A DNA stretch of 64,000 nt from a virus. The translations under genes were made by a program, and so were the position numbers. Positions 20,095 through 63,160 of the stretch are shown in pieces. How positions within the stretch are numbered: position 1 is the stretch's first letter; the number at the start of each line of letters is the position of its first letter. The notes beneath the pieces were generated by a model, which was given only the letters and a program-made list of their open reading frames with translations, was not told the DNA's origin and made no database searches. The DNA lies in the IMG/VR virus record IMGVR_UViG_3300048590_000360, positions 1-64,000 of that record, one strand, 5' to 3'.

Positions 20095-20095
20095 C

Positions 20096-25948: not shown

Positions 25949-25990
25949 TAGATATTTCAGTTTTTGTACAACGATTTTGTAAATGTCCAT
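25949..25990 (-). pseudogene. truncated copy of the first 14 codons of the tyrosine recombinase gene
   Basis: rc ATGGACATTTACAAAATCGTTGTACAAAAACTGAAATATCTA (MDIYKIVVQKLKYL), then it diverges and stops after one more codon. Confidence 0.7.
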
Positions 25991-26035
25991 GCTGTAACCC
26001 CTTATTTTATTGGTATTGTTGTTATATGGTAGTTA
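25949..26035. repeat. 87-bp exact direct repeat, copy 1 (junction plus recombinase 5' end)
   Basis: Identical to 48213..48299. Ends in ggtaGTTA, followed by a different cassette. Confidence 0.9.
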
Positions 26036-26044
26036 TCGGCAACC

Positions 26045-26407: not shown

Positions 26408-26454
26408 TTTTTATTTGTTTAAATTGTTAATAATCATTCCGAAAGAAGGGCAGC

Positions 26455-26541
26455 CGATAACAGCGTATAAAGTAAACCGCCAATCCCCACCCACGTAGCC
26501 AACGCAATTGTCGGCTTCCCTTATACGCAAAAGCGTTAGCG
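26455..26541. repeat. attC-like structured repeat
   Basis: Ends CGATAAC-AGC ... GCAAAAGC-GTTAGCG. Stem gcgtataa (26463-26470) / ttatacgc (26521-26528). Confidence 0.55.
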
Positions 26542-26550
26542 GAAATGATT

Positions 26551-26793
26551 TTACCCACCCATATCTACAATAGTAGGTTTAATCGGTTCACCGCCAACCG
26601 AAGCGAATAGAGATAGTTTTTTACTTGGTTTACCATCTTCAACCATCCAAGCAATTGAACCGCAACAAGGCGTTGAACCTGTCCAGTTTTTTAATTGAGT
26701 TTTACATACGTTACATTCCACCCAAAAATCACTATCCGCTAACACATTATTTGCGTCAGTGGGGGTGTTGTTTTTCAAATCGTCGTTTTGCAT
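26551..26793 (-). CDS. small zinc-ribbon-like cassette protein
   Basis: 80 aa with CNVC ... CCGS. The first ~17 codons lie inside repeat 26737..26870. Confidence 0.55.
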   Translation of the reverse strand: MQNDDLKNNTPTDANNVLADSDFWVECNVCKTQLKNWTGSTPCCGSIAWMVEDGKPSKKLSLFASVGGEPIKPTIVDMGG

Positions 26794-26870
26794 ATTATTA
26801 AAATTTAGTTTTTCAAATTAACTGTGGTGGTGTAATGCCCCACCGAACGCAAATAATCGGCACGTTAGCA
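26737..26870. repeat. attC-like structured repeat, long subfamily (134 bp, downstream ATG in loop)
   Basis: Ends CGCTAAC ... GTTAGCA. Arms attatttgcgt (26746-26756) / acgcaaataat (26847-26857) and gtgggg (26759-26764) / ccccac (26838-26843). The stop of 26865..27107 lies inside gTTAgca. Confidence 0.55.
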
Positions 26871-27107
26871 GTCAGTTTGCCCCAAATCACCGTAAGGCTT
26901 TTGAAGTGCTTTACTACTAATAGCTATTTCTCCGTTAGGAAGTTCATTGCAATGGCAAACCGAACTGCTAACAGGCGGTTGGCGCAATACTTGTTTCATC
27001 GCTTCGATTAAAGTGTGGTACATTTCAGCATCGCTTACTTTGTCATTCTCGCTTTTCGGGTATCTATTGTCTATTACCCATTGTGCTATTTCTTGTATCG
27101 TTTTCAT
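26865..27107 (-). CDS. hypothetical cassette protein
   Basis: 80-aa ORF with ATG start. Confidence 0.55.
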   Translation of the reverse strand: MKTIQEIAQWVIDNRYPKSENDKVSDAEMYHTLIEAMKQVLRQPPVSSSVCHCNELPNGEIAISSKALQKPYGDLGQTDC

Positions 27108-27171
27108 ATCAAAATTTTGTTTTAATTATTCGTACTGCGCCAACCGCCAAACCGTTATAACCAATAGGGGT

Positions 27172-27369
27172 TCAGTCCTTCGATTTAACATTTCGGTTGG
27201 CGGTTTTCTTATTTTTTTGCACACGCTCTTTGGTTTTTTCAAAACCATTAGATTTTGATTCTCGTTCCAAAATATCCTGTGCCAAGTTTTTAAAATCCGT
27301 GTTCTCATCAATGGCTCTCTTGCTCAATGATTTTACACATTCATCTGATAAATCAAGTAGTTTTTTCAT
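27172..27369 (-). CDS. ribbon-helix-helix-like small protein
   Basis: MKKLLDLSDECVKSLSKRAIDENTDFKNLAQDILERE shows a beta-alpha-alpha pattern. It is the last gene of a three-gene unit. Confidence 0.5.
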   Translation of the reverse strand: MKKLLDLSDECVKSLSKRAIDENTDFKNLAQDILERESKSNGFEKTKERVQKNKKTANRNVKSKD

Positions 27370-27805
27370 ATCCTTTATTTAGTATTTTTCTACAACTTTC
27401 CGCGTCCTTTCCGTTTGGTTGGTGTTTTAGTTTCCACAAAGAACTACTTGCGTAATGTTTTGCCAAACTTTCGCACTTTTCAAATGGAACAATAGTATAG
27501 ATATACGAAGTAATCTCTATACTGCTTTCGGTATTACCGCCAAACATAGCTTCGCTTTCTTCAACACAACAAGATAAAACTGGTTCACTTTCATTATCTT
27601 CAAATTTTATCACTGAAAGTTCTTTAATTACATCACTTATTGTAGTAGATTTTAATTGTACATTCTTTTCTTTTTTATCAAACCAATGAATGTAATTACG
27701 ATGTAGTGTAGTAAAATCACGTTTTTTCAAAAGCTCAATAGCTTCATTCCTACTTTTAGTAGTTGATTTTAGGTAATGCTGATATACTATTTCTTCTTGT
27801 GTCAT
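27353..27805 (-). CDS. hypothetical cassette protein
   Basis: 150-aa ORF that overlaps the downstream RHH-like gene by 17 nt. Confidence 0.6.
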   Translation of the reverse strand: MTQEEIVYQHYLKSTTKSRNEAIELLKKRDFTTLHRNYIHWFDKKEKNVQLKSTTISDVIKELSVIKFEDNESEPVLSCCVEESEAMFGGNTESSIEITSYIYTIVPFEKCESLAKHYASSSLWKLKHQPNGKDAESCRKILNKGYEKTT

Positions 27806-27816
27806 AATCGTTATTT

Positions 27817-28107
27817 TTAAAGGGTTTTAAAGTAGTTAAGTAATTGATTAAAATACTTCCCGTAATACTCAATAGCATAGCCATTCATATAAGCAGGTTT
27901 TACACTTTCTCTTTGTGAGGCAACCACATTAATTCCTAAAGTTTTTGCTGCAAAATCAACAAAGTTTTCAAGTTTGGTGTCGAGCCATTTAATATCACAA
28001 TCCCTAAATTCTCCTTTATTTAATTGGTTTATTATTTTAGTAATCGGGTCTATTAAAGAAACTTCGATAATAAACTGGTCAATTGCTGTGTTGTTTGTTG
28101 CTTTCAT
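27817..28107 (-). CDS. hypothetical cassette protein
   Basis: 96-aa ORF. TATATTTG box 24 nt upstream. Confidence 0.6.
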   Translation of the reverse strand: MKATNNTAIDQFIIEVSLIDPITKIINQLNKGEFRDCDIKWLDTKLENFVDFAAKTLGINVVASQRESVKPAYMNGYAIEYYGKYFNQLLNYFKTL

Positions 28108-28131
28108 TTTGTTTCGTTTTTAATTCTGATA

Positions 28132-28139
28132 CAAATATA
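28132..28139 (-). promoter_or_regulatory. -7 promoter box (rc TATATTTG)
   Basis: Overlaps the first unit of the 3 x 9-bp repeat at 28135..28161. Confidence 0.5.
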
Positions 28140-28161
28140 TACCATATATACGATATATACA
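28135..28161. repeat. 3 x 9-bp tandem repeat (ATATATAC-N), operator-like
   Basis: atatatac at 28135, 28144 and 28153, with an exact 9-bp period. Confidence 0.8.
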
Positions 28162-28291
28162 AGTAAAAGTTTCAAATATTTTAAAACTAACTGATTTTCA
28201 AAGAGAATAATTTTTAAATCCCTCCCTAAAAAAATAAGAAAACTGCTGTTTCTGCTCCGAATTTGGCTTTGTGCTAAACAATCCCTACTGG

Positions 28292-28346
28292 TTATAACAG
28301 CACATTGGCGGCATTAAAACGACCGCCAATCTGCATCACGTTGTAT
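28292..28346. repeat. attC-like structured repeat (55 bp)
   Basis: Ends TTATAAC-AGC ... GCATCAC-GTTGTAT. Stem attggcgg (28304-28311) / ccgccaat (28323-28330). Confidence 0.55.
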
Positions 28347-28494
28347 GCAATTATGGCGCAAAAGACCAGGTAAATAGCCAAATATTTTTAGTAAATAGTG
28401 AGTTTAGGATTAGAAAATGACTTAATTTTTGTCAAGCCTTGCAAAGTAGATTTGCTGAAAAGTATTTTCAAAGCGAATTACGCTAAAAGGCTTG

Positions 28495-28502
28495 CAAAGG
28501 TA
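28495..28502 (-). promoter_or_regulatory. -7 promoter box (rc TACCTTTG) with TTTG 20 nt upstream, inside an ORF-free cassette
   Basis: rc TTTGACTTTGTCTTTTTTTTCTAATACCTTTG. No ORF of 20 aa or more lies downstream before repeat 28292..28346. Confidence 0.4.
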
Positions 28503-28688
28503 TTAGAAAAAAAAGACAAAGTCAAATTTTTATTCTAATACGATCATAAACTGCTATTTATTAAAGAGATGGCTTGGTTTGTAAAAGACTAATCTTATCC
28601 CTTTGGGGCATAAGACCAATATTTTTCAATCATTTAACTAGGTTTTTTGCGGCATAACTGGGACTGTTTTCATAACTTAGCCGAGTTA

Positions 28689-28772
28689 GAATAACAGCAC
28701 ACAACAACAGGTTTGTTCAATGCCTGCCGCCGGCGCAACACAGGCACTGCACAAACCTGCTATACGTTAGGT
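28689..28772. repeat. attC-like structured repeat
   Basis: Ends GAATAAC-AGC ... GCTATAC-GTTAGGT. Stem caggtttgt (28708-28716) / acaaacctg (28751-28759) plus an inner tgcctg/caggca pair. Confidence 0.6.
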
Positions 28773-28813
28773 GCAATAAAAAATAAATTTCCCACCGCAC
28801 CAAACTAACAACA

Positions 28814-29080
28814 TTAATCCTTCTTTTTAGAGTATTGAAAAACCAATTGGTTGGCAATGTGGTTAAACTCTAAATTGTTTTTGTCATCGCCTGTAATCTT
28901 ATTGAAAAGATGCGTAGGCATAATGTTTGCCAACGCGTGGAAAAAATGCGTAAGGTTATCGCCTTCTTGTAATTCTTGTTGGTCAATGTGAAAATCACTT
29001 TCGCTATCTTCATCAAAGAGTTCCGCAATTTTTCCACTTAACATTGCCGCATAATGTAAATGTTTTTCGGTCTGTGCCAT
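28814..29080 (-). CDS. hypothetical cassette protein
   Basis: 88-aa ORF with ATG start. Confidence 0.55.
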   Translation of the reverse strand: MAQTEKHLHYAAMLSGKIAELFDEDSESDFHIDQQELQEGDNLTHFFHALANIMPTHLFNKITGDDKNNLEFNHIANQLVFQYSKKKD

Positions 29081-29128
29081 AATTGAAATTTGTTTTAAAA
29101 GCCCACGCTAAATTTATTTTTTACAGAC

Positions 29129-29227
29129 ACCTAACAGCAGGTAGGCAAAATGCCGCTATGAGCCTGAGTGCTTTGATATTTACATTTGTGGTAAGCGTCA
29201 CTATCGCCTACCTGCAAACCGTTAGCG
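29129..29227. repeat. attC-like structured repeat
   Basis: Ends ACCTAAC-AGC ... GCAAAC-C-GTTAGCG. Perfect 10-bp stem gcaggtaggc (29137-29146) / gcctacctgc (29206-29215). Confidence 0.6.
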
Positions 29228-29234
29228 GAAAATG

Positions 29235-29570
29235 CTACATCCACTCATCCAACGGAACATTTTTAGTTTTAAATTTTTTGCCTTGAACTGTTAGCACGTA
29301 GTCAAAATTTGCTCTTTGCCAATTACTTTGGTGTATCAACCCCATTCTAACCAATCGAAACAAAATAGACGAATTAAATGTGAACTCACCTTTTGCAGAA
29401 CAACAAGTAACTGTTGATGTACAAGATTGTGTTATCAATTGCCATCCATTTTGAAGACAAAAAACAATCATATTTTGTTTTGGAGTTAGTTTTAATTTAA
29501 CCGCATCATCCGCTAACACGTGTTTTGCGTCAGGCGGGGTTTCGTGGTTAATTGCAGTTTGTGTTTTCAT
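29235..29570 (-). CDS. hypothetical cassette protein
   Basis: 111-aa ORF. The N-terminal ...PPDAKHVLADD is encoded inside repeat 29511..29643. Confidence 0.55.
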   Translation of the reverse strand: MKTQTAINHETPPDAKHVLADDAVKLKLTPKQNMIVFCLQNGWQLITQSCTSTVTCCSAKGEFTFNSSILFRLVRMGLIHQSNWQRANFDYVLTVQGKKFKTKNVPLDEWM

Positions 29571-29643
29571 AATTTAATTTTGTTTAAGTTGAAAGTTTGC
29601 GGTTTTCAAACCCGCCCGAACGCAAAGCACCTTAACGTTGTAG
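29511..29643. repeat. attC-like structured repeat, long subfamily (133 bp, downstream ATG in loop)
   Basis: Ends CGCTAAC ... AAC-GTTGTAG. Arms gtgttttgcg (29520-29529) / cgcaaagcac (29621-29630) and ggcggg (29533-29538) / cccgcc (29611-29616). Confidence 0.5.
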
Positions 29644-29655
29644 GCAATTGCCTTG

Positions 29656-29889
29656 CTATAAAAGCGTATTGCCACATTTTCCGCAAAAGTCTTGAACTTT
29701 ACTGTTTACCCTGTTATTTTCGCAATCGCAAGGCAACTGTTCGCTTCGCCCTACAACAGGGGCTATATGTAATACTTGGATCATTGCTTCGTAAATAACT
29801 TCAAGTTGATTTGAGTTAAATTCTTGCTCAACGCTTGTAAAGTTTCCAAATGTATTTAATGCTTCTAATAATATTTTTTCTTTATCCAT
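29656..29889 (-). CDS. small cassette protein with C-terminal CxC...CxxC
   Basis: 77 aa ending ...LPCDCENNRVNSKVQDFCGKCGNTLL. Confidence 0.5.
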   Translation of the reverse strand: MDKEKILLEALNTFGNFTSVEQEFNSNQLEVIYEAMIQVLHIAPVVGRSEQLPCDCENNRVNSKVQDFCGKCGNTLL

Positions 29890-29940
29890 TTCTATTAAGT
29901 TTTATCGTTAATAAATCGTACTACATATAGCCCCAAACCG

Positions 29941-30204
29941 TTAGCTGCAAGCTGGCAGACTAATCCACGCAATAACGCTTCCGTTTGTATGTTGTGGTCG
30001 CATATCATTAACCCAAACAATTACCCGATTATCTTCAAGCCTTAAATGACATACATCCATTTTACCATAGTCGGTTAATATTAGCACTGGTTTACCAAAT
30101 TCGGGTAATTGTTTTTCTACTGGAATCCAGCCAGCAGCTAACACAGTATTGCCGACAATTGCGGGTTCTGTGGTAGGTTCAACTTTTTGTTTTTTATTGT
30201 TCAT
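29941..30204 (-). CDS. DUF551-like cassette protein
   Basis: GWIPVEKQLPEFGKPVLILTD ... VIAWISLP resembles DUF551 (match by eye only). The stop lies inside gTTAgct. Confidence 0.5.
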   Translation of the reverse strand: MNNKKQKVEPTTEPAIVGNTVLAAGWIPVEKQLPEFGKPVLILTDYGKMDVCHLRLEDNRVIVWVNDMRPQHTNGSVIAWISLPACS

Positions 30205-30269
30205 TTGTGCAAATTTTGAAGTTTTTTAATTCTAATTCCGCAACTGCGGCAATACTCGGAACGTTAGCA
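30136..30269. repeat. attC-like structured repeat, long subfamily (134 bp, downstream ATG in loop)
   Basis: Ends AGCTAAC ... GTTAGCA. Arms agtattgccg (30145-30154) / cggcaatact (30247-30256). Confidence 0.5.
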
Positions 30270-30275
30270 CCAATA

Positions 30276-30509
30276 CTACGAGTGTGCTGCAAAAACCTGA
30301 TTATCCCTTAATCGTATTTGTTCTCTTATCTTTTCGGCTAATTGTTCTACTTCGTCAGAATAAGAACATATAACAGTTCCGTCCTCTTTTTTTAAGGCTA
30401 TAGGCATTGCGTTTGCGTATAAGTCAAATAGTGCCTTAAATAGTTCTTTTCTGTGGCTATCATTCAAAATAGCTTCTCTTTGTTTTTGGTAATATTTTTG
30501 GTCTTTCAT
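30276..30509 (-). CDS. hypothetical cassette protein
   Basis: 77-aa ORF. The conserved leader AGTACGGATTATTAAC lies upstream. Confidence 0.5.
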   Translation of the reverse strand: MKDQKYYQKQREAILNDSHRKELFKALFDLYANAMPIALKKEDGTVICSYSDEVEQLAEKIREQIRLRDNQVFAAHS

Positions 30510-30543
30510 TCTATTTATATTTTGTTGTTAATAATCCGTACTG

Positions 30544-30608
30544 GTGCTAACAGCAAATAAGCAAAACTCCGCTATCGCTACGCTTCGCCTATTTGCAAAC
30601 CGTTAGCG
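30544..30608. repeat. attC-like structured repeat (65 bp)
   Basis: Ends GTGCTAAC-AGC ... GCAAAC-C-GTTAGCG. Stem gcaaataagc (30553-30562) / gcctatttgc (30587-30596), with one A-C (G-T on the minus strand). The stop of 30603..30920 lies inside gTTAgcg. Confidence 0.6.
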
Positions 30609-30920
30609 GTCATTGCCGCCAAGCCCAAGTCCCTTAATTATCCTTTCCATAAAGTCGCCACTTTTTTTCACATCGCAAGTTTCGTTAAACCATTTTTCGT
30701 CCTCTTCATTTTCAGGAAAAACAATGTTGCACCTCATAGCAGTTTCCCTTAGAAGCGGCAACGAACCGCTAACATCGGGTTGGGCTAAATTTTTATTGGC
30801 TACGAGTTGCGCGTATTCGGAAAGGATAATTGATACTTTCCCTTTCGTGTAGAACTCTTCCCCTTCATCATTAGTATAGTCTGGTGTCCACATTTTCAAA
30901 ACTTCCATTTCTCTTGTCAT
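30603..30920 (-). CDS. hypothetical cassette protein
   Basis: 105-aa ORF with ATG start. Confidence 0.55.
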   Translation of the reverse strand: MTREMEVLKMWTPDYTNDEGEEFYTKGKVSIILSEYAQLVANKNLAQPDVSGSLPLLRETAMRCNIVFPENEEDEKWFNETCDVKKSGDFMERIIKGLGLGGNDR

Positions 30921-31022
30921 GCTATTTATATTTAGTCGTTAATAATCCGCCAATAAAAACTTCGCCAACCCGTCCACCGTTATAGCACATTAAAACGATG
31001 CTATAACAGCGCATAAGAGAAG

Positions 31023-31286
31023 TTAAGGCTTAGATAGTGCTTCGAGCAAAGATTCTGCATGAAGAACAGCCAACTCACTAATACCACTTGGTGAGAATGT
31101 CATACTTCCTCCTTGTGTCATTCCTCCGTTACAATTTGCTAATAATCCTTGCATCGCTAATCCTGCAAAATACTCCTTCTTAGTTAAACCATATTGGGTA
31201 AAACTTCCATTAGGATCAAGCATAGAATCTATGTATTCTTTACCTTTAATTCTAGCATTCGTTTGCTGTTCTGTTTCCTTTTCCAT
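31023..31286 (-). CDS. hypothetical cassette protein
   Basis: 87-aa ORF. The stop lies inside gTTAagg. Confidence 0.55.
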   Translation of the reverse strand: MEKETEQQTNARIKGKEYIDSMLDPNGSFTQYGLTKKEYFAGLAMQGLLANCNGGMTQGGSMTFSPSGISELAVLHAESLLEALSKP

Positions 31287-31397
31287 AATCTAATTTTTTT
31301 AATTTGTTTCGCCTTAACTTCTCCTATGCGCCTACCGTTAGCGGCAAGCGTAGGACACCACTCCGAATAAACAGCATCCTACACAAACCGAAAAAGG

Positions 31398-35989: not shown

Positions 35990-38080
35990 TCACCTTATTC
36001 TTCGTTTAGTGAATAATGGTTTGGGTTTTGTTCCTTCCTTCATTGATTGTGAAATCTTTTTTCTGGTAAAGTCTTTGGCACCAATATAGGCTAACATAGA
36101 TGCTACCGTTAAGTCATACTTAGTCCAATCTCCAGGTTCAAATTTTAACCAATCATGTAGTAAATCTTCCAAACTACAAGTTCCGTTAAGACTGCGTACT
36201 ATATCTACTTCAGGGATACCTAATTTAGTTAATTGTGTTTCTATAGTTATTTCTCCAATAAAATCATGGATATACCCATGTAGTCTATCCATCAATGTCT
36301 CTCTGACAAACTCTCCTGCTGTACTAATCCCTTCAACGGGTTTTGATGCTTTGTCTCTATTGAGTATTGATTGTTTTGTTTTTTTTATAAATCCCCCGTG
36401 TCCGGATTCCCGAAGGTAATTAATAAGTCCTGGCTTTTGGTTTTCTATGAGTAAGTCCCAAGAATAGAACATTGCTACTTTCAACGCATCATCCCAAAAA
36501 AGTTTCGGGGTTTCTCTCCTGTAACAGTATGAGAACACGAAACAGTTACTTTTGAATATATCCATTGGTTCATAAGCTCTAAACCCTACAATCGCAGCGT
36601 TAGACCTTCTTGTATCTACAGTGGTTTTATGGTCGAATGGGTCAACACCTATACATCCTGATTCTGTAAATTTAGGTTTCCTTCCTGTCATATCCTGTGT
36701 GAAACAGTTTCTGTCTTGTGGTAATGGCATCCACCCCACTTTGAATAATCCTTCAGAATCGTCCACAAATCTTACTACAGTTCTTTCGTCATTTTCAAAT
36801 AGAAAATTTCCTACTCTATAAGGAACCGATACAACTGAGGCATTGTGTTCCAACTGTTCGTATATCTTATCAGCAGGAAACCCCTCACCTTTACTGTCAA
36901 GGATAAATGCTTCCATGACGTTTGTAGGGTATTTTCTCTTTTCCTCATTGAGTTTTGTACCTGTTAGTTTAGTTCTTTTGCTTTTAAGATAGTCCAAGGC
37001 ACCAATGGTTTCCGTTTCTCCTTCATTGTTAGTGAATGGTTTTAATGGTGTTTCAATTACTGAATATCCATATTCATCAATGAATCCACTTAGTCCGTGT
37101 TGCGCTGGTTTGAAGTATCTGTATAATCCTGAAATAGTCCTTCCATCGTCTTTCCTATTGTTTGCGTCTGAATCCCTCCATAGATTTGCAACAGGTTCAC
37201 CCCCTGCCCTGTTTGTTTCTTCTACAGTAGATGAAAGGTATGCTTTACCTACAATGGTTTTTCCAACTTCTAAGCATGGTTTCAAAATGTACCACCGTGA
37301 TTCTGGGTTTGCATTTGATGGTTTTCCTATCTCATCCTGATAGTTCCTGAATTGTCGTGTTCCATCGTATGCTTCTTCTTTAGATGATTCATAATCAATG
37401 AAACTATTAAGTACGTTTTTGTAGGTTTTCTTTTCGCCTTTTGTGCTTCTGCGTGCGGGTTCTTCAAACTTTAATGCTTTTTGTGGTGAAGTCTGCCCTG
37501 AGTCAATAGGTTTCCAAAAGTCAGGTAATTTCTTCCAACTTTTTACCATCTTCAGGAAGATACGTAAAGCATCAATGTCTGTCTTAGATTGAATCCCTGA
37601 TTGCTCATCCTTCACTAAGGACGTTGCTTCATATAGGATACATGAACCTTTATATGTTTTTCCTGAACGTCTATCGGAAATGAATAATAATCCGTAACAG
37701 TTTTTATCTTTAACACATAAGTCCCAAACGTAAAAGAAGTCTCTGTCAGATTCGCGCCATTCCGGAAGGTCTTTGCCAATGTACCAATATGTGAGGTAAA
37801 AATAATGTAACCCTGTTATGTATTCTATCTTCCCATTATTATAAAAGAAGATACCGTTTTTTCTTCTGTCAAGTTCCCTAATGTATAACTGTTCTTGTTC
37901 TTGTACTGATAAGGCATTCCAACGGAGATGGTCTTTCGGTGCTTTCCACTTGTGATTGTACTTTTGGTTAGAATTAAGGATTTGAGAAACTTCTGGTGGT
38001 TCTGGTAGGTGTATTTTGTATTTATACCCTGTCCCATCGTCAATCTCCCTGATTTTTTTAAAATCCTTAACCGATTCCAT
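35990..38080 (-). CDS. terL: terminase large subunit
   Basis: 696 aa. Walker A-like SDRRSGKT, Walker B-like NYQDEIG, and nuclease-domain motif CIGVDPFDH. Confidence 0.85.
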   Translation of the reverse strand: MESVKDFKKIREIDDGTGYKYKIHLPEPPEVSQILNSNQKYNHKWKAPKDHLRWNALSVQEQEQLYIRELDRRKNGIFFYNNGKIEYITGLHYFYLTYWYIGKDLPEWRESDRDFFYVWDLCVKDKNCYGLLFISDRRSGKTYKGSCILYEATSLVKDEQSGIQSKTDIDALRIFLKMVKSWKKLPDFWKPIDSGQTSPQKALKFEEPARRSTKGEKKTYKNVLNSFIDYESSKEEAYDGTRQFRNYQDEIGKPSNANPESRWYILKPCLEVGKTIVGKAYLSSTVEETNRAGGEPVANLWRDSDANNRKDDGRTISGLYRYFKPAQHGLSGFIDEYGYSVIETPLKPFTNNEGETETIGALDYLKSKRTKLTGTKLNEEKRKYPTNVMEAFILDSKGEGFPADKIYEQLEHNASVVSVPYRVGNFLFENDERTVVRFVDDSEGLFKVGWMPLPQDRNCFTQDMTGRKPKFTESGCIGVDPFDHKTTVDTRRSNAAIVGFRAYEPMDIFKSNCFVFSYCYRRETPKLFWDDALKVAMFYSWDLLIENQKPGLINYLRESGHGGFIKKTKQSILNRDKASKPVEGISTAGEFVRETLMDRLHGYIHDFIGEITIETQLTKLGIPEVDIVRSLNGTCSLEDLLHDWLKFEPGDWTKYDLTVASMLAYIGAKDFTRKKISQSMKEGTKPKPLFTKRRIR

Positions 38081-43494: not shown

Positions 43495-43498
43495 GAGA

Positions 43499-43506: not shown

Positions 43507-43512
43507 CTGATA

Positions 43513-47462: not shown

Positions 47463-48254
47463 TTAGATTGGTAAATTCACTTTTGAAAGCAACTGATTTG
47501 AAACGTGCGTGTATATTTCCGTGGTTTTTATATTTGAGTGTCCTGCAATCTTTTGAATAATCCTTGTGTCTGTACCTGATTCAAGCATAGCGGTAAATGA
47601 TGAATGCCTGAGAAGGTGGAAATGATAATCCTTGCCGATGTATTTTTTGACAATTTGGTTGCAACTTGCAGATGAATATTGATTACTGAATTGCCCGTTA
47701 AAAAGGTATTCTGTTGGTTTATATTCTTTGTAGTATTCTCTTAGCGTGGTGAGTATTGTTTGGCTTAGTGGCACGATTCTATCCTTTCTACCTTTGGCGT
47801 TTTTGATGTAAATTATCATTCTACTGGAATCAATGTCGGTTATCTTTAGGTTGATTATTTCTGAAACTCTAAGTCCTACACTAAATGCCAATGATATAAT
47901 TGCTTTATGCTTTAAGTTTTCGATGTTATTGATAGACTTAATAAGGTGTTCTCTATCAATTACTCTTGGTAGTTTCTTTTCGGAACGGGGTCTGTTAAAA
48001 TGAACCTTGTCGTATTTTTTGTTTAATCCGTATTTGTATAAGAATCTTATTGCGTTAATAATTTGATTCTGTTGTGATACTGATTTGAACGGATAATTGT
48101 CTAAATACTGCTGAAACTCTTTTGCGGAAACTCTTGATATATGTACTTTACTTTTTGATAGGTATTCGTCAATATAATATAAGTAAACTTTTTGTGTGTT
48201 TTCTGAATAATTTAGATATTTCAGTTTTTGTACAACGATTTTGTAAATGTCCAT
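47463..48254 (-). CDS. tyrosine recombinase/integrase, short XerC/D-like (263 aa)
   Basis: Catalytic signature GLRVSE (Arg I), KGRKDRIVPL, HLLRHS (His-x-x-Arg), GHSNIKTTEIYTHV (His ... Tyr). No obvious extra insertion of the IntI type. Confidence 0.9.
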   Translation of the reverse strand: MDIYKIVVQKLKYLNYSENTQKVYLYYIDEYLSKSKVHISRVSAKEFQQYLDNYPFKSVSQQNQIINAIRFLYKYGLNKKYDKVHFNRPRSEKKLPRVIDREHLIKSINNIENLKHKAIISLAFSVGLRVSEIINLKITDIDSSRMIIYIKNAKGRKDRIVPLSQTILTTLREYYKEYKPTEYLFNGQFSNQYSSASCNQIVKKYIGKDYHFHLLRHSSFTAMLESGTDTRIIQKIAGHSNIKTTEIYTHVSNQLLSKVNLPI

Positions 48255-48299
48255 GCTGTAACCCCTTATTTTATTGGTATTGTTGTTATATGGTAGTTA
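48213..48299. repeat. 87-bp exact direct repeat, copy 2 (recombinase codons 1-14 plus 45-nt upstream junction)
   Basis: Identical to 25949..26035. Ends in ggtaGTTA of the GTTAGGT core (48296-48302). Confidence 0.9.
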
Positions 48300-48308
48300 G
48301 GTGCAATG

Positions 48309-48485
48309 CTAAACGACATACACCAACTCAATCTGAAATTTACCATTTTCTCGGTCAATAAATCTTTCTGCATCTTCAACTGTATCAAAGTAGTCAGCAA
48401 GGTATGCTTCTTTACTCCATCCGTAGGCTTCACCACAATAATAAGTTTGAGCCTCAAAATCTTTTACTACATATTTCTTTTCCAT
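48309..48485 (-). CDS. hypothetical cassette protein (58 aa)
   Basis: The ORF-track GTG start 48515 lies inside repeat 48514..48597, so I trimmed to ATG 48485 (MEKKYVVKDFE...). Confidence 0.45.
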   Translation of the reverse strand: MEKKYVVKDFEAQTYYCGEAYGWSKEAYLADYFDTVEDAERFIDRENGKFQIELVYVV

Positions 48486-48513
48486 TTTTATTTGAATTTG
48501 TGAAAAGCACTGC

Positions 48514-48597
48514 ACCTAACAGCGGTTTTGTGCAAGTTGCCCAACCGGCTCAATGCCCACGCTCCGCAGCCTGACACAAAGCCGCAAAACGTTGGCA
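48514..48597. repeat. attC-like structured repeat
   Basis: Ends ACCTAAC-AGC ... GCAAAAC-GTTGGCA. Stem gcggttttgtg (48522-48532) / cacaaagccgc (48575-48585), with one T-G. Confidence 0.6.
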
Positions 48598-48603
48598 GTA
48601 ATG

Positions 48604-49203
48604 CTACGAGAACACCGACCAACTACCATCTTTCTTATTTATTTTCATTACGCCTTTCTTTGACAAATCTTTATCGTATGGATTTTCAAGAAACAAAAAC
48701 TCTGTACTTTCCATTGATTTTAAAGAGTTACAATAAAATTCGCCTGTTTCAATGTTGTAGTAATTGCTATCAACTGAATAAATGCAACTACCCTTTTTTA
48801 TGTAAGGGCTTTTAAATTGGTCAAATTCTTTTTTCTCAACTCCGTTTTTATCAATTATGCACCAGCGACCTTCTAAATGTTTTCTTTGTAATTCAAGTTC
48901 TTTTCGACTTTTATTTGGATAGCATTTTTTAATAAAATCATAATCATAAATTGCTTCTACATATTTAAGAAGCATAAAATAATCTTGTTTTATATCACCC
49001 CCAAATCCACCAACACGATAAAGCGATTTGCTTATTAATTCACCATTTTTTGTAAGGCAAACAAAATCATTACTATTATTATTCCACTCATTCAAATAAT
49101 CTTGATTAACCTGAATAGGGGATAACTGCAAAGCACTACTGCCAACATCTGCTTTATGCAAGTGGGGCTGAACTGCTAAATTGAACATTTGTAATTCTAT
49201 CAT
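48604..49203 (-). CDS. hypothetical cassette protein
   Basis: 199-aa ORF with ATG start. The stop lies 6 nt from the repeat end. Confidence 0.65.
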   Translation of the reverse strand: MIELQMFNLAVQPHLHKADVGSSALQLSPIQVNQDYLNEWNNNSNDFVCLTKNGELISKSLYRVGGFGGDIKQDYFMLLKYVEAIYDYDFIKKCYPNKSRKELELQRKHLEGRWCIIDKNGVEKKEFDQFKSPYIKKGSCIYSVDSNYYNIETGEFYCNSLKSMESTEFLFLENPYDKDLSKKGVMKINKKDGSWSVFS

Positions 49204-49265
49204 CTTTTGTACTTTATTTAAACATTAGTTTTTCAAATTCCCCACCTGACATAAAGCAGTGGGCG

Positions 49266-49472
49266 TTATGCTCCATTGCTACGGAAGTACTCAGAATTAG
49301 CATTTGAGATAACATTTTTATTCTTTTCTTCCTTCGCTTTGAAATAAGAAACAAGAATACTTTCAACCGTGTTATTAAAACTTGGTCTGTTTGTTTCTTC
49401 CCGTTCTTTTTCTATTGCTTCAACTAACCAATCGTTTTTGTCAGTTAGTTTTAATGATATTCTCTTACTCAT
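49266..49472 (-). CDS. ribbon-helix-helix-like protein, paralog a
   Basis: MSKRISLKLTDKNDWLVEAIEKEREETNRPSFNNTVESILVSYF. About 90 percent nt identity to 51266..51451. The stop lies inside gTTAtgc. Confidence 0.6.
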   Translation of the reverse strand: MSKRISLKLTDKNDWLVEAIEKEREETNRPSFNNTVESILVSYFKAKEEKNKNVISNANSEYFRSNGA

Positions 49473-49473
49473 A

Positions 49474-49773
49474 TTACCACCAAATTCTTAATCCAATACA
49501 CCAATTTTCTTCTGCATCCTTATATGAATACATATTAGATAACAAACCAAGTTCTTCTATTTTAACTTGTGCTTTTTCTAAAGAACGCCTCAATAAACCA
49601 TCCATATTTGGTGCGTTACCAATATGCAATTCATTTTTACCTTCTTTAGCAGCATCAACCAATCTTTTCTCTAAATTAATTAATTTGCTGTTAGCCATTT
49701 CTTCAATAGCTTGTTCAACAGTCTGCTTTGTGTTTTTCGCAGTAATTTCTTTAAGTTTATCTGTTGTAATCAT
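49474..49773 (-). CDS. hypothetical cassette protein
   Basis: 99-aa ORF. Its stop lies 1 nt before the RHH-like gene ATG. TACCTTTG box 28 nt upstream. Confidence 0.6.
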   Translation of the reverse strand: MITTDKLKEITAKNTKQTVEQAIEEMANSKLINLEKRLVDAAKEGKNELHIGNAPNMDGLLRRSLEKAQVKIEELGLLSNMYSYKDAEENWCIGLRIWW

Positions 49774-49801
49774 AATTATCTTGTTTTATTAATTTATACG
49801 T

Positions 49802-49809
49802 CAAAGGTA
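49802..49809 (-). promoter_or_regulatory. -7 promoter box (rc TACCTTTG)
   Basis: rc TTATTTGAAACAAAAGTATTACCTTTGACG, 28 nt upstream of ATG 49773. Confidence 0.45.
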
Positions 49810-49942
49810 ATACTTTTGTTTCAAATAACCTAATCTTTTTTCAATTATTTTTTAAAGCGTTGATAATCAGCCACCACACAAAAGAATAAAAATGTTTGTA
49901 GTGCTTCGATTGAAAGAATGTACTAAATTGACCGCAACGAGA

Positions 49943-50038
49943 GCATAACACGTGCTATAAGCAAGTTTGCCAATAACATTTGTGCTAAATTTGAACATTT
50001 CTGCAAGGCAAACCTGCTCATAGCACCATACGTTGTGC
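49943..50038. repeat. attC-like structured repeat
   Basis: Ends GCATAAC-ACG ... CCATAC-GTTGTGC. 20-bp stem gtgctataagcaagtttgcc (49952-49971) / ggcaaacctgctcatagcac (50007-50026) with two A-C (G-T on the minus strand). Confidence 0.6.
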
Positions 50039-50042
50039 GTAA

Positions 50043-50258
50043 TTAAAGTATCTCTACCAATTTACCACTTTCCAATATTTTGGTTAGGCAATTGCCACAC
50101 CTATTTTGTACTGCCGATTCTCCAATAACTTGAAACCTAATCAAGTCATTTAATTTATGATATTCGCCACATCCTAAGCAATTATAACTACGCACAACAT
50201 TATGTATAGCACATTGCTTTTCTACCTTTTTGCTAAATAATTTCTTAATCCAGTTCAT
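50043..50258 (-). CDS. small zinc-ribbon-like cassette protein
   Basis: 71 aa with CAIH...CLGC...CGNC. Confidence 0.5.
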   Translation of the reverse strand: MNWIKKLFSKKVEKQCAIHNVVRSYNCLGCGEYHKLNDLIRFQVIGESAVQNRCGNCLTKILESGKLVEIL

Positions 50259-50322
50259 ATTGTTTTTAATTTAGGTTAGTTGTGGCAACGTGCCATACAC
50301 TCGTCCGTTAGCCGTAATGCCG

Positions 50323-50565
50323 TTAGACATCATCATCACCTTTGACAAGTTCCAACTGACCGACATAGAAATCGCCACAATCTTTTTTATATGCAATGTT
50401 TTTTTGCTTAAATGTTTCTTCTAAATCAGCTTGACATAAGCAATAATCAAGTTCAAGCGTATTGTAATAGTCCTCTTTTATTGGCAAAAAACCAAAGTGA
50501 GTTTCAAATTCTCGTGGCGTTCCTATTTCTACTTCGCCTCTATTTATTACTACGATATGGCACAT
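50323..50565 (-). CDS. hypothetical cassette protein (80 aa)
   Basis: The ORF-track start 50649 would read through repeat 50568..50663, so I trimmed to ATG 50565 (MCHIVVINRGE...). The stop lies inside gTTAgac. Confidence 0.5.
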   Translation of the reverse strand: MCHIVVINRGEVEIGTPREFETHFGFLPIKEDYYNTLELDYCLCQADLEETFKQKNIAYKKDCGDFYVGQLELVKGDDDV

Positions 50566-50567
50566 AC

Positions 50568-50663
50568 GGCTAACAGCGTGTTTATGCAAGCGGGCGGACA
50601 GCTTGCGGTTAATATTTAAGTTCGTGCTATGCCCGCCTGACATAAACACGCAAAACGTTAGGC
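50568..50663. repeat. attC-like structured repeat
   Basis: Ends GGCTAAC-AGC ... GCAAAAC-GTTAGGC (the canonical integron core). Stems gcgtgtttatg (50576-50586) / cataaacacgc (50641-50651) and gcgggc (50590-50595) / gcccgc (50631-50636). Confidence 0.65.
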
Positions 50664-50669
50664 GTAATG

Positions 50670-50891
50670 CTAATCAACCGAAATTAATTTAGCATAGACC
50701 ATTTTTGTATCGAAATGTTCCTCCAAAACTTTAGTTATTTCTTCTATTGAAATATCATCAGCATTTTTAGGGTTAAATCCATATTCCCATTTACAATATT
50801 CATCATCTATTGTAATGATAAAAGCACTACGCCTAACAGCACCTAAATCGCTATTGGCTGTTTTGTGGTTAATTGATTTTTCGTGTTCCAT
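50670..50891 (-). CDS. hypothetical cassette protein
   Basis: 73-aa ORF with ATG start. Confidence 0.5.
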   Translation of the reverse strand: MEHEKSINHKTANSDLGAVRRSAFIITIDDEYCKWEYGFNPKNADDISIEEITKVLEEHFDTKMVYAKLISVD

Positions 50892-50972
50892 TGTTACTTT
50901 ATTTTAAGTTGATAATTCTTTGTTTTAAATCGCCAACAGCGTTTAGCTGCGGAACCGTTATAAAACAGTTTG

Positions 50973-51194
50973 CTATTCAAATTTATCACTCCAACATTTC
51001 ATACTGCAACACGGGGCATACTTGCTATTCATCGGCTTACCGCAATCGCAAACCGATTTTATAACATGGGCTAAACCCAATGCTTGCATTATCGTTTCAT
51101 AATAAAATCCCAAATTACATTCTTCATTTTGTACTCCTTTTTCATATACTTTAAACAGTAGTTTCTCTATTTGCTTTCTTTTTTGCTTTGCCAT
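50973..51194 (-). CDS. small Cys-rich cassette protein
   Basis: 73 aa ending CDCGKPMNSKYAPCCSMKCWSDKFE. Confidence 0.5.
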   Translation of the reverse strand: MAKQKRKQIEKLLFKVYEKGVQNEECNLGFYYETIMQALGLAHVIKSVCDCGKPMNSKYAPCCSMKCWSDKFE

Positions 51195-51265
51195 TTCAAT
51201 TAAATTTTGTTGTTAATAGTCGCACTGTGTTTAGCCCCGTTCCGTTATGCTCCATTGCTACGGAA

Positions 51266-51451
51266 CTACTCCGAATTAGCATTTGTGGTAACATTTTTAT
51301 TCTTTTCTTCCTTCGCTTTAAAATAAGAAACAAGAATACTTTCAACAGTATTGTTAAAACTCGGTCTATTGGTTTGCTCCTGTTCTTTATTTATCGCTTC
51401 AACTAACCAATCGTTTTTGTCGGTTAGTTTTAATGATATTCTTTTACTCAT
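51266..51451 (-). CDS. ribbon-helix-helix-like protein, paralog b
   Basis: MSKRISLKLTDKNDWLVEAINKEQEQTNRPSFNNTVESILVSYF. Shorter C-terminus than paralog a. Confidence 0.6.
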   Translation of the reverse strand: MSKRISLKLTDKNDWLVEAINKEQEQTNRPSFNNTVESILVSYFKAKEEKNKNVTTNANSE

Positions 51452-51650
51452 TTGTTTTCACCTTAATTTCCCACCATTCGTAAAAATCCATTCCTGATTT
51501 ACCTAAACTTTCACCAACAATTGCTGGTTCATCTGTCATTCCTTCCATGTAACCATCATTATATGCTTCATCAGCAATATTTTTAATGAAATCAGTAGCA
51601 TGTTGTTCGCTCAAACCGAGTTTTACAAGTAATTCAATTCTATTTTTCAT
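51444..51650 (-). CDS. hypothetical cassette protein
   Basis: 68-aa ORF overlapping the RHH-like gene start. A 7-bp inverted repeat atcttta/taaagat lies immediately upstream (51651-51678). Confidence 0.55.
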   Translation of the reverse strand: MKNRIELLVKLGLSEQHATDFIKNIADEAYNDGYMEGMTDEPAIVGESLGKSGMDFYEWWEIKVKTNE

Positions 51651-51715
51651 ATCTTTAAATGTTGCTTATCATAAAGATTGAAACGCAATGAAAATACAAA
51701 AGGTTACAACCAAAA

Positions 51716-60757: not shown

Positions 60758-63160
60758 TCACACGTCTAATGCTGATTTAATTGGATTGAATTGTGTCTGT
60801 GGGTCACGGACTCCTGGAACTAAGTCTGTTCCAGGTTTACTACCTATATCTGCTGTAGGTGAATTTTGGTCAGACAACTCCGCAGCAACTTGAATCTTTT
60901 CAATTTCACTATCACCTCTAATATGGGCTACTGCTCTATCACCGTTTATTTCAGTTTCTTTAAGTCTAATCTTCCATGTATATTCTGCTTCAATCTCAGC
61001 TAAACGGGCTTCTGTTTTTGCTTTAATAATTTGCAGTTCTTTCTCAGTGCTTGCCACGACAGACATTTTTTCTCTTTCAGCAATTAACATTTCTTGTTCT
61101 GCACGTTGTTTGCTAACTTCCTCATTCCTTTTCTTCATGATGTACGATAACATCCTTTCACCTTTCTTGGTATTAAGTGTCCTGCGGATATTAGTAGCAT
61201 CATCCAATGTAATAGATTTTTCCTGAAGGGCAATTTGGATATCGTTCTCAAGCTTAGCAATTTCCTCTTTCCCTGGTAGTGCTTCAGTTTTAATACCTAA
61301 TTCAATAGATTCAACGTCACCTAATGCTTCCATTGATACGATACCCATTTGGCCGATTACAGATTCATAAGCATCTCTGCAAGATGGGTCGTGTACCAAT
61401 CTTATCTGAATCATTCGGCTTAATGTTTCTCCAGTGGGTTCATAGATTCCTTTGACATAGGTTTGGTAAATTTCCCTAAGTGCGTTATTAGAATTTATTA
61501 GTTGTAATTTTTGAATACCTATTGCTGTATCTTTGTCCGGTTTAAATGTATCCATTGCAGATATACCGGTTATCTCTCTTATTTTCTCCAATTCAAATCT
61601 GATAATCTCCATGAATGGAGCAATCTGTCCCACGATGCCGTTTGGCAATGGGATAATTGGTGGCCTGTTCATATATTCTCCGTCAACAGTTGAATCTGAA
61701 TGCACCAATATACCCTTTTGGACATATAGTTTAATTAATTCCGTTGGGTCTGAGACTTTAACAGAATCAAGCATTACACCTGTTAATGAATCTATACTTA
61801 TGGATACCCCTGGAGGGATAGCTTGTGCAATGAACTGACGCATCTTCAATGATGCTATCTGTATATTGTCAAGGTGTGATTTACTTCTATCAATAAGACT
61901 ACGGCTTTCATTGTATCTGTAGTTAATTGAATACATTATAAATTTCCGGTAACAGCGTGAACTTAGTTTACCTGATTTCTTTGGGCGTAGTGAATTCTTT
62001 GCTCTCCCCCACGATGCCATCTTATCAATAGAGATTACATATATTCCTTCATATTCTCTTTCAATGCTTTTGGCAAATTTCTTATCTTCATCAATCTCTG
62101 TGTTAAAACCTTTGTTGTTGAAGTAATGGTTGCCGTATTTATTTTCTTTCCATTCCCAATTTAACAAATCCTCACTATACAGTATAAAATCAAGTATTTG
62201 AATCCTATATTCATCATACGTTTCTTCTTCTCTTGTTCTTTGAGTGCTGTAGTTTTGGTAGCTTTCCCCGAAACTCCAAATGGGATTGCCATTGGAATTT
62301 GCTGCTTTTTTTGCTGCTTGGAAAAGTTCTTCTTCTGAAAGGTGTTGGTTAAGTTTGCGAAGTTCTCTTACTGTTATGAATTTCAGTTCTCCCATGTATT
62401 CTACATCCTTCAAGTCAGGTCTGTCTGTTTGAGAATGGATTATAAATTCTATGTCAGAATATCTGATTCTGGGTTTATTGTTTTCGTCGAAGTACAACCT
62501 TATTGCTGCTCTGCTATTTTCCAGTAAGTCACGTTTTACTCTCTTGCTGATTTCCTGCCAATCATTATTGTAAAATTCAAAATTTGTAAGTTCCTCAAAG
62601 GCAATTTCAATATCCTGTTTAAATGTCAAGTCCATGTGCATATCTATTTCGTCAATAGACTTGAATACCATTTTAGGTATCTTCATTAAAGGGATACCGG
62701 TTTGCTTTTCTAATTCAAGTGCCGTTTTATATTTGACATAATCACCGATGAACTTATCCCTTGCATTATCCCTTAGTGATTTACTTTTTGGGTCAATAGC
62801 ATTGAATTGAATGTTATATTCCTGATTCAGCATATCCCCTAATACGGAGTCAATTAATACAGGCATAGGGCTAACAATGTCCCACGATATATTAAGGTAT
62901 GATTCACCTGTGCTATCAATCTCTTGGTCTAGTACAGGCATGTATTGACGTATATCCTGATTTCCGTCTGAATAGAGTCTGTTGTTGCGTATTTTTTGCC
63001 GTCTCCTTGTAAGATATTCATCGTACAGTGCTTTACTGTAGATGTGTTTAGCAACACGTTTCCCCCATTTAGGGGTTTGTTTTATTGCTGGGTCTATATC
63101 TGAATTGGGGAAAGGTGATTCAGACATTATTTTTTCATAATCTTCTTTGGATCTGGCCAT
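60758..63160 (-). CDS. portal protein (candidate)
   Basis: 800-aa ORF upstream of the scaffold-like and capsid candidates, with a C-terminal charged coiled coil. Assignment by size and order. Confidence 0.55.
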   Translation of the reverse strand: MARSKEDYEKIMSESPFPNSDIDPAIKQTPKWGKRVAKHIYSKALYDEYLTRRRQKIRNNRLYSDGNQDIRQYMPVLDQEIDSTGESYLNISWDIVSPMPVLIDSVLGDMLNQEYNIQFNAIDPKSKSLRDNARDKFIGDYVKYKTALELEKQTGIPLMKIPKMVFKSIDEIDMHMDLTFKQDIEIAFEELTNFEFYNNDWQEISKRVKRDLLENSRAAIRLYFDENNKPRIRYSDIEFIIHSQTDRPDLKDVEYMGELKFITVRELRKLNQHLSEEELFQAAKKAANSNGNPIWSFGESYQNYSTQRTREEETYDEYRIQILDFILYSEDLLNWEWKENKYGNHYFNNKGFNTEIDEDKKFAKSIEREYEGIYVISIDKMASWGRAKNSLRPKKSGKLSSRCYRKFIMYSINYRYNESRSLIDRSKSHLDNIQIASLKMRQFIAQAIPPGVSISIDSLTGVMLDSVKVSDPTELIKLYVQKGILVHSDSTVDGEYMNRPPIIPLPNGIVGQIAPFMEIIRFELEKIREITGISAMDTFKPDKDTAIGIQKLQLINSNNALREIYQTYVKGIYEPTGETLSRMIQIRLVHDPSCRDAYESVIGQMGIVSMEALGDVESIELGIKTEALPGKEEIAKLENDIQIALQEKSITLDDATNIRRTLNTKKGERMLSYIMKKRNEEVSKQRAEQEMLIAEREKMSVVASTEKELQIIKAKTEARLAEIEAEYTWKIRLKETEINGDRAVAHIRGDSEIEKIQVAAELSDQNSPTADIGSKPGTDLVPGVRDPQTQFNPIKSALDV

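Follow-up and report, generated by a model that had tools for sequence, protein, structure and literature searches.

Does the tyrosine recombinase gene at 47463..48254 of a phage genome fragment, with its adjoining row of small genes and hairpin-forming elements, belong to an integron-type platform that works with an enzyme other than IntI? The question is raised by positions 1 to 64,000 of the IMG/VR record IMGVR_UViG_3300048590_000360 (hereafter the window, that is, the whole 64,000-nucleotide stretch analysed), which is an AT-rich fragment (GC content ~0.37) with nearly all of its genes on the minus strand. Integrons are regarded as a bacterial device, defined by the integrase IntI with its extra helix, and as rare or fragmentary in phages. 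The window contains two arrays of small cassettes, array A, which adjoins the recombinase gene (7 hairpin elements, 8 units), and array B, at 26.0-31.3 kb (12 elements). The system is, in our judgement, quite likely to be a phage-borne functional analogue of the integron. It is classed here as an integron-like variant rather than an integron, because the enzyme has no IntI-specific domain and the architecture of the sites is unlike that of attC.

An earlier note on this DNA had proposed, for array A, the order recombinase gene, attI-like junction and cassettes. The coordinates of the recombinase open reading frame (ORF; 47463..48254, minus strand, 263 residues), of the 41-nucleotide (nt) junction (48255-48295) and of the motif GTTAGGT (48296-48302) were all reproduced. 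The proposed geometry is upheld by the agreement of stem covariation, cross-cassette complementarity, the duplicate of the junction, its conservation, the polymorphism of the arrays at the junction AAC, and the association of elements with one strand and one position. The presence of a second array makes the feature larger than was supposed. Ten minus-strand ORFs lie in array A, between 48309 and 51650, and the cassette ORFs do face the recombinase, throughout the window and in the related phage loci L003-L009.

The attI-like junction of array A (48255..48299, plus strand) reads ACCTAAC/TACCATATAACAACAATA on the recombinase-sense strand (here and below, a slash marks the boundary), and the crossover would fall within the GTT at 48296-48298. 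Array B is headed by the same junction, given that 25949-26036 is a perfect 88-nt copy of 48213-48300 (repeat D3), comprising the first 15 recombinase codons and the junction. The attI-like site of this array (25949..26035, plus strand) is therefore fused to a 15-codon recombinase remnant (MDIYKIVVQKLKYLL, ending in a stop). The two copies are identical up to GGTAGTTA and diverge immediately after it. The junction is thus what an attI site should look like, because it forms no hairpin, ends in GTTA and heads both arrays. As in integrons, the candidate attI adjoins the recombinase gene, is conserved and is duplicated at array B, and the differences between arrays begin at its AAC.

The hairpin elements share a plus-strand architecture, which was searched for with a scanner (YTAAC, 1-2 nt, an arm of 10-12 nt, a variable centre, the complementary arm, and 5-6 nt ending in C, followed by GTTR). 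The scanner returned 22 matches in the window, 19 of them on the plus strand and 17 of these in the two arrays, while composition-matched shuffles gave 2.5 matches per window, both strands together. Two of the plus-strand matches, at 22440-22527 and 25083-25312 (stems of 9-10 base pairs, bp), belong to neither array and fall to the left of the array-B junction; chance could account for this number of matches, but they are oriented like the array elements. Together with two elements delimited by eye, the 17 array matches give 19 window elements, all in one orientation. Shufflons and tyrosine invertases act on inverted sites that flank invertible segments; here, the window elements and 124 more found elsewhere are uniformly oriented.

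Three hairpin elements described in the earlier note were recovered, at 48517-48594, 49946-50035 and 50571-50660. Four others, which it had taken as short or degenerate, are instead the 3' arms of long elements, at 49143-49268, 50196-50310, 50834-50960 and 51062-51247 (50196-50310 by eye and the other three by the scanner); in each, the cassette ORF covers the 5' arm and the R'' box, and begins in the loop. The note was right that GTTAGGT is a perfect GTTRRRY, but this perfect match is partly coincidental; 3 of 21 window sites agree with the consensus, and all that is conserved over the 21 sites is C-GTT-R, followed by CAAT about 8 nt further on.

The covariation of the 11-bp stem was measured on an alignment of the arms of ten elements (alignment A3). 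In this stem, 92.7% of the cells are paired, in comparison with 26-37% when the partner is slid by 1-3 columns, compensatory double changes are found in 8 of the 11 stem pairs, and the covariation score was reached by none of 500 shuffles. It is the structure of the elements, rather than their sequence, that is conserved. A one-sided excess of ~4 nt is also constant (spacers of 1/5 or 2/6 nt in 10 of 13 elements), and there is a conserved A.C mismatch (CAAT opposite ACTG) 8 nt from the core. Four reconstituted circular-cassette sites fold alike (z from -2.3 to -6.5), with 4-5 bp, a 1x1 mismatch, a 10-bp R stem, a 1/5-nt loop and an L stem of 11-13 bp. Palindromy, covariation and AAC/GTT ends are thus present, as in attC, while full 7-mer cores are restricted to the three sites noted above and the internal architecture is different.

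A cassette system also makes a prediction about the bases outside the stem. If a circularising unit recombines within GTT, its two ends belong to the same cassette, so the R'' extension of an element must pair with the bases that follow the previous GTT, and not with those after its own GTT. This relationship was evaluated by a permutation test on 18 elements, in which the 10-nt extension 5' of AAC was compared with the 10 nt after GTT. The R'' extension agrees with the previous element at 121 of 180 positions, versus 64 of 180 for the element's own GTT flank, and the permuted values had a mean of 63.8 (standard deviation 6.8, maximum 92), with 121 reached by none of 20,000 permutations. The statistic includes three sites with mis-set coordinates, and is hence conservative; the corrected sites match by eye. 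The outer half of R' is therefore found at the other end of the cassette, an arrangement that in integrons points to a circular intermediate.

The unit is the cassette body plus the element on its right, as the earlier note had drawn it, given that several ORFs begin in the loop of the right-hand element and read leftwards out of it, that the TTA of G/TTA is the stop codon of the ORF itself in at least four cassettes, and that the junction stands at the left start of both arrays. The opposite assignment, with the elements 3' of the minus-strand ORFs and attI at 51.7 kb, was rejected, as the ORFs start in right-hand loops, the junctions are on the left and the far ends have no junction.

The individual units of array A (plus-strand coordinates, with all ORFs on the minus strand) follow this pattern. 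Cassette A1 (48297..48591) consists of the ORF 48309..48515 and the scanner element 48517-48594, with an R'' extension that matches the post-attI TTAGGTGCAAT at 9 of 10 positions and a reconstituted circular site that folds with z = -3.1. In A2 (48592..49265), the ATG of the ORF 48604..49203 lies in the loop of the scanner element 49143-49268, and R'' matches the previous R' at 9 of 10 positions. Cassette A3 (49266..50032) has two ORFs (49266..49472 and 49474..49773) and the scanner element 49946-50035, with 7 of 10 positions matching the previous R'. Cassette A4 (50033..50307), which was missed by the strict scanner and delimited by eye, contains the ORF 50043..50258, starting in the loop of the element 50196-50310; its R'' (CTACGCACAAC) matches the previous R' (GTTGTGCGTA), its stem is formed by TGTATAGCAC and GTGCCATACA, and its spacers are of 4/7 nt. 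Cassette A5 (50308..50657) pairs the ORF 50323..50565 with the scanner element 50571-50660, which has an 11-bp stem; its R'' (ACGGCTAAC) matches GTTAGCCGT at 50307, and the reconstituted site folds with z = -5.6. The previous R' is matched at 9 of 10 positions in A6 (50658..50957; ORF 50670..50891, scanner element 50834-50960) and at 7 of 10 in A7 (50958..51244; ORF 50973..51194, scanner element 51062-51247). The distal unit, A8 (51245..51715), starts at the R' of A7 and contains the ORFs 51266..51451 and 51444..51650.

The first ORF of A3, at 49264-49472, has a paralogue at 51243-51451 (91% identity, MSKRISLKLTDKNDW...), and the two begin different cassettes, with the paralogue starting at the same CGTTA as the A3 copy (repeat D1). 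These paralogues are possibly ribbon-helix-helix proteins. Each one is overlapped by a different upstream partner ORF, which gives the appearance of two-gene modules in which one gene has been swapped.

Array B (26033..31340, plus strand) is made up of 12 cassettes, with elements at 26458-26538, 26740-26867, 26969-27157, 28295-28343, 28702-28769, 29132-29224, 29514-29640, 29754-29943, 30139-30266, 30548-30605, 30770-30982 and 31004-31340, all on the plus strand, of which 11 were found by the scanner and 30770-30982 by eye. Here too, the cross-cassette complementarity holds and the stems covary. The last of these elements encloses a whole ORF (31023..31286, 87 residues) in a 20-bp stem. The 426-bp cassette at 28341-28766, which is flanked by the elements 28295-28343 and 28702-28769, lacks minus-strand ORFs of 45 or more residues, and may be an ORF-less cassette like those of integrons, or else the carrier of a small RNA or a promoter.

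Natural variation among related phages is informative on what happens at the junction. In the loci L006 and L007, an identity of 99.7% begins precisely at TAAC, includes the recombinase and continues past it, but the arrays are different and share a single cassette, with AAC at both ends and a different rank in each; at the end of this cassette, the homology switches to another position. In L003 and L004, both flanks are common and the interior is different. Ten cultured isolates of the Polaribacter phage Freya are 100% identical over the 6.8 kb downstream, and are set apart by inserts of 0 to 4.94 kb located precisely at the junction AAC. Freya_1 reads ...TTGTTTACAAC/ACCCCTATAAC, followed by the integrase, Freya_10 has 4.94 kb, with 12 ORFs, inserted between ...TTTACAAC/ and /ACCCCTATAAC (...GCTAAC/ACCCC), and other isolates are intermediate. 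Taken together, these comparisons show the gain, loss and reshuffling of cassettes at the junction. The cassettes shared by Freya and Danklef do not count as evidence of transfer, because the core genomes of these phages are also 97% identical.

These observations can be set against a more conventional explanation, in which the hairpins are regulatory or structural features (terminators, sites of RNA stability or processing, or promoters), homologous or illegitimate recombination makes the arrays vary, and the integrase is a lysogeny enzyme that uses the junction as attP. Temperate phages often have variable accessory genes near int and attP, the elements are located just upstream of or around the starts of ORFs, and the integrases of Freya and Ingeline were taken as signs of a temperate lifestyle by the authors who described these phages, who do not mention integrons (PMC8776804). 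A regulatory hairpin nevertheless does not account for the complementarity between the bases outside it and the other end of their cassette, no U-run follows the stems on the mRNA strand, and the breakpoints of the arrays fall exactly on AAC. A junction copy with a mere 15-codon remnant of the recombinase heads an array of 12 cassettes, and the enzyme, with 263 residues, has no arm-binding domain. Lysogeny integrases typically combine such a domain with an attP bearing arm sites and an attB, in many cases a tRNA gene, whereas this recombinase has two domains only and a scan of the window for tRNA genes found none. This explanation is thus very improbable, although the recombinase itself may perform host integration.

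What kind of enzyme, then, would move the cassettes? The gene encodes a tyrosine recombinase of the Xer/IntI-like type (47463..48254, minus strand), in which Pfam recognises only Phage_integrase and SAM_4, that is, the catalytic domain and a SAM-like core-binding domain. It does not group with the arm-type prophage integrases; the earlier note would have counted a grouping with ordinary prophage integrases against its proposal. Among the NCBIfam models, XerA_Arch scores 169 bits (cutoff 220), the integron integrase TIGR02249 scores 150 bits in two stretches (cutoff 265), and XerC and XerD score 134 (cutoff 335) and 133 (cutoff 330), so that the protein belongs to none of the XerA, XerC or XerD equivalogs. 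In the Protein Data Bank, XerA of P. abyssi (4a8e) aligns contiguously (3.8e-37), while the Vibrio integrase VchIntIA (IntI4; 2a3v) aligns in two pieces, with 27 recombinase residues facing 75. An alignment-based AF2 model (predicted local distance difference test score, pLDDT, of 87) has, at residues 179-194, a short loop in place of an extra helix, and its top Foldseek matches are a tie between VchIntIA 2a3v (2e-13) and XerA 5hxy (2.6e-13). The absence of the IntI-specific insertion, which had been read from the sequence, is thus confirmed by the alignment and the model, and the protein is not a member of the IntI clade with its additional domain. The catalytic residues R129, K154/K157, H213, R216, H239 and Y248 are invariant across 54 homologues.

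In the functional analogue of the integron that is preferred here, this 263-residue recombinase would be the catalyst, and would recombine a double-stranded attI-like site (TAAC/TAnnATATAT on the sense strand of the gene) with the imperfect palindromes of the cassettes, through a crossover inside the conserved GTT/AAC triplet. A cassette would extend, on the plus strand, from the TTA after the G of one element up to the G of the next. The site in its circular form would have an R stem of ~14 bp (x-YTAAC / GTTAR-x'), with the conserved A.C mismatch, and an asymmetric loop of 1-2 nt versus 5-6 nt, followed by an L stem of 10-20 bp and a distal part that varies from 5 to ~300 nt and can accommodate a promoter region, a start codon or a whole ORF. 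The cassette site would react as a folded hairpin or cruciform, given that structure is conserved over sequence and that a distance of 45-335 bp between the R boxes rules out an ordinary duplex core site. Polarity, which is marked by extrahelical bases in attC, may here be marked by the asymmetric loop and the A.C mismatch. In integrons, promoterless ORFs point away from the integrase and are driven from the promoter Pc; this arrangement is not found in the phage, where no promoter was identified. Cassette expression would rely on read-through or on the cassette's own upstream sequence rather than on a Pc, which is possible because the cassette ORFs run with all of the phage genes.

The same platform could also work by another mechanism, with the recombinase acting on duplex DNA in the manner of Xer at dif, the R boxes as core sites and the hairpins being incidental or involved only in synapsis. 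XerA and IntI are equally close to the enzyme, which has no helix with which to read the extrahelical bases of attC, and the attI-like site has no hairpin. Inverted R boxes separated by such distances are not a workable core site, however, while the compensatory changes in the L stem imply selection on an intramolecular fold, and the size of the asymmetric loop is itself conserved, at 1/5 or 2/6 nt. No 28-bp dif-type site was identified, although no search was aimed at dif-like sites; what recurs in the manner of a substrate is the junction and the hairpin elements. A duplex mechanism therefore seems rather unlikely, if by no means negligible.

Reaction on folded sites remains the preferred reading, and the distribution of the system can be examined from this perspective. 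The recombinase family comprises more than 100 clusters at ~70% identity, and IMG/VR contains 235 relatives, on contigs of 4-362 kb. Freshwater phage contigs with identical recombinases invariably have a series of small co-directional ORFs ahead of the gene. The scanner found the same elements in L003-L009, all antisense to and upstream of the recombinase gene, while in L010-L172 the elements were counted only by a covariance model (R1, threshold E <= 0.01), which was built from arm-only constructs of the elements of this window alone. In 80 IMG/VR loci, the model produced 124 matches, all of them (124/124) on the strand opposite to the recombinase gene, with 123 of the 124 upstream and none on the sense strand. 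The earlier note had staked its proposal on the conservation of the junction next to homologous recombinases, and the junction motif TAAC/TAnnATATAT is indeed conserved across 31 sequences, with looser forms in Freya and Ingeline, cultured flavobacterial phages with enzymes that are 39-41% identical to that of the window.

Other features of these loci deserve mention. In many of the contigs L093-L172, no more than a few hundred bases separate the recombinase gene from the contig end on its upstream side, as would be expected if population-level variation in the arrays breaks the assemblies. An AT-rich element of ~48 nt is very common, with several copies per array (in L132, L134 and L135, for example). 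The cassette closest to the junction in L003 (9707-9940) encodes a Lar restriction-alleviation domain (PF14354), which hints at anti-defence cargo, and the cargo in general probably consists of accessory or anti-defence genes.

Phages are known to carry clusters of attC sites lacking integron integrases (CALINs), and Qi et al. (2023) found 17 CALINs in phages, each with at least two attC sites, including one in a Polaribacter phage; they propose no phage-encoded partner recombinase or attI, and the term 'Xer' is absent from their text (PMC9892861). The arrays of the window might accordingly be integron debris acquired from the hosts and moved in trans by a host IntI, with the phage enzyme an unrelated lysogeny integrase or a dimer-resolving Xer. 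Some of the sites in phage CALINs work with IntI1 (PMC9892861), and the elements described here share their AAC...GTT ends and palindromic form with attC. The association of recombinase and array is, however, fixed in orientation and position in all 80 phage loci with matches (80/80), the conserved junction abuts the recombinase gene and marks the divergence of the arrays, and the elements have a 1/5-nt asymmetric loop and a 14-bp R stem, without conservation of GTTRRRY. The relatives, moreover, are found almost only in Bacteroidota, a phylum that is essentially devoid of IntI (PMC9024848; bioRxiv 2024.07.02.601686). We consider host-derived debris a highly improbable source of the arrays. The window does resemble the phage CALINs in having attC-type clusters, in virulent or uncharacterised phages, without IntI, and differs from them in its 8 + 12 cassettes, its dedicated recombinase and junction, and its recurrence in at least 80 IMG/VR contigs.

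The functional analogue of the integron that is favoured here is also represented in bacteria. A scan of one genome per species returned 164 relatives of the recombinase, with 35-61% identity, almost all from Bacteroidota. Covariance-model matches are antisense and upstream in Chryseobacterium and other genomes; the sole exception to this orientation rule is provided by strong matches on the sense strand, downstream, in two bacterial loci (L025 11506-11595 and L070 15096-15160), which may reflect a second, inverted platform nearby. In the chromosome of Chryseobacterium aahli (L085), five ORFs diverge from the recombinase, each followed by its element, and the GTTAGCAG of the first cassette is complementary to the junction CTGCTAAC/. 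The C. aahli recombinase (37-38% identity) scores 224.5 bits with NF040815, versus a cutoff of 220 bits, and matches TIGR02249 in two stretches, which indicates that it too has no insertion, since the match is split. The Chryseobacterium arrays share with the phage a homologous recombinase, the element architecture, a similar junction (CTGCTAAC/ATCC...) and the orientation of the elements relative to the recombinase, and differ in being chromosomal and in having ORFs that point away from the recombinase, which is the classical integron geometry. The phage version differs from the bacterial one only by its flipped ORFs, which follow phage transcription.

IntegronFinder 2.0 reported a single complete integron in Bacteroidetes (PMC9024848), and a preprint of 2024 lists Bacteroidota among the clades without integrons (bioRxiv 2024.07.02.601686). 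We lean, if only slightly, towards a distinct lineage, possibly ancestral or convergent, in which Xer-like recombinases without the I2 helix act on folded sites of a new architecture. This lineage would be widespread both in Bacteroidota chromosomes, with the classical geometry, and in phages, including virulent and jumbo-sized ones, with flipped ORFs, and would provide a self-editing store of accessory and anti-defence genes, as well as the exchange of cassettes with the hosts.

The logic of the system resembles that of the classical integrons (class 1 and the chromosomal integrons of Vibrio). As in these systems, the recombinase gene adjoins a hairpin-less attI, and the cassettes are small, mostly single-ORF and in one orientation, with a cargo that is mostly without assigned function and with ORF-less cassettes. 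The sites are imperfect palindromes kept in structure, with AAC/GTT ends and, probably, a crossover in GTT, and the outer half of each R box is found at the other end of the integrated cassette. The system departs from classical integrons in its enzyme, which has no I2 helix, in its hosts, which are phages and Bacteroidota, in its elements, which are up to 337 nt long and can surround an ORF, and in the phage ORFs, which face the recombinase and have the site at their 5' end. While attC has an unpaired central spacer and extrahelical bases, the sites described here have the 14-bp R stem, the A.C mismatch and the one-sided excess of 4 nt. The extra bases are presumably on the opposite arm, relative to the ORF-sense strand, from those of attC. 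With XerA and XerC/D at dif, the recombinase shares its simple two-domain layout and a similar size, and XerA is its best match in sequence and fold (4a8e, 5hxy; NF040815), but the NCBIfam scores are below the cutoffs and the context is one of cassette arrays, rather than chromosome segregation. The literature that was searched yielded no description of this system.

Several points weigh against the reading of the locus as a cassette platform on folded sites. The I2 helix is regarded as essential for the recombination of attC by IntI (PMC8138268), and the recombinase of the window has no such helix. In the 'integron-like' subgroup of Smyshlyaev et al., the conservation of the insertion is, according to these authors, incomplete. 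The support for recombination as such is comparative, and the circular form of the junction is a prediction. Model R1 recovers short elements and misses those with loops of 100-300 nt, which makes the counts obtained elsewhere lower bounds. Elements with the architecture of the window were not delimited in the arrays of Freya (by a crude palindrome scan of Freya_10 and by eye) and Ingeline, so that the evidence from Freya is limited to the boundary of the insertion. The far end of array A has no recognisable element, and in A8 nothing that would pair as R'' with GTTATGCTCC was found ahead of the phage gene at 51716. Instead of a binding site, the conserved TAnnATATAT could represent the recombinase promoter, and none of 20 cassette ORFs was assigned a function by Pfam or PHROGs.

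If the platform is active, cassettes would be captured through folded DNA sites without the need for the IntI insertion, and a major phylum and its viruses would possess integron-type platforms of their own, unrecognised by current tools. In this case, the "integrases" on account of which many flavobacterial and freshwater phages are called temperate may instead be cassette recombinases, and the site-specific reshuffling of the accessory and anti-defence genes of the phages would explain the hypervariable regions that break metagenomic assemblies. A compact recombinase of 263 residues with short structured sites is also a possible genetic tool.

The remainder of the window is that of a phage without close DNA relatives among the deposited phages, as a megablast of 24 kb of the window against phage records returned no match. 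A scan of the window at the Rfam gathering thresholds likewise returned no family. The remnant of the array-B junction abuts an ORF-poor stretch of 1.4 kb (24540-25948), without coding-strand ORFs of 45 or more residues, with a strong positive GC skew (+0.28), six tandem 14-nt repeats (TTCCTTCGGTGTCC) at 24846-24954 and A-rich repeats; this stretch could be a replication origin or the genome terminus. A giant ORF of 2862 residues (4286-12874) has no PHROG match, and a direct repeat of 90 nt lies within it, close to the 5' end (12667-12855). The large terminase (35990..38080; 4e-96), the portal protein (60758..63160; 6e-81) and other virion proteins were recognised with PHROGs. The motif TTTGTATCTTTGTTTCATG, in the minus-strand reading, is found at 20071-20098, 20357-20384, 43483-43510 and 57481-57508, with a TAnnTTTG-like box a few bases before an ATG. 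This box resembles the -7 promoter consensus of Bacteroidota sigma-A, which fits a Bacteroidota host.

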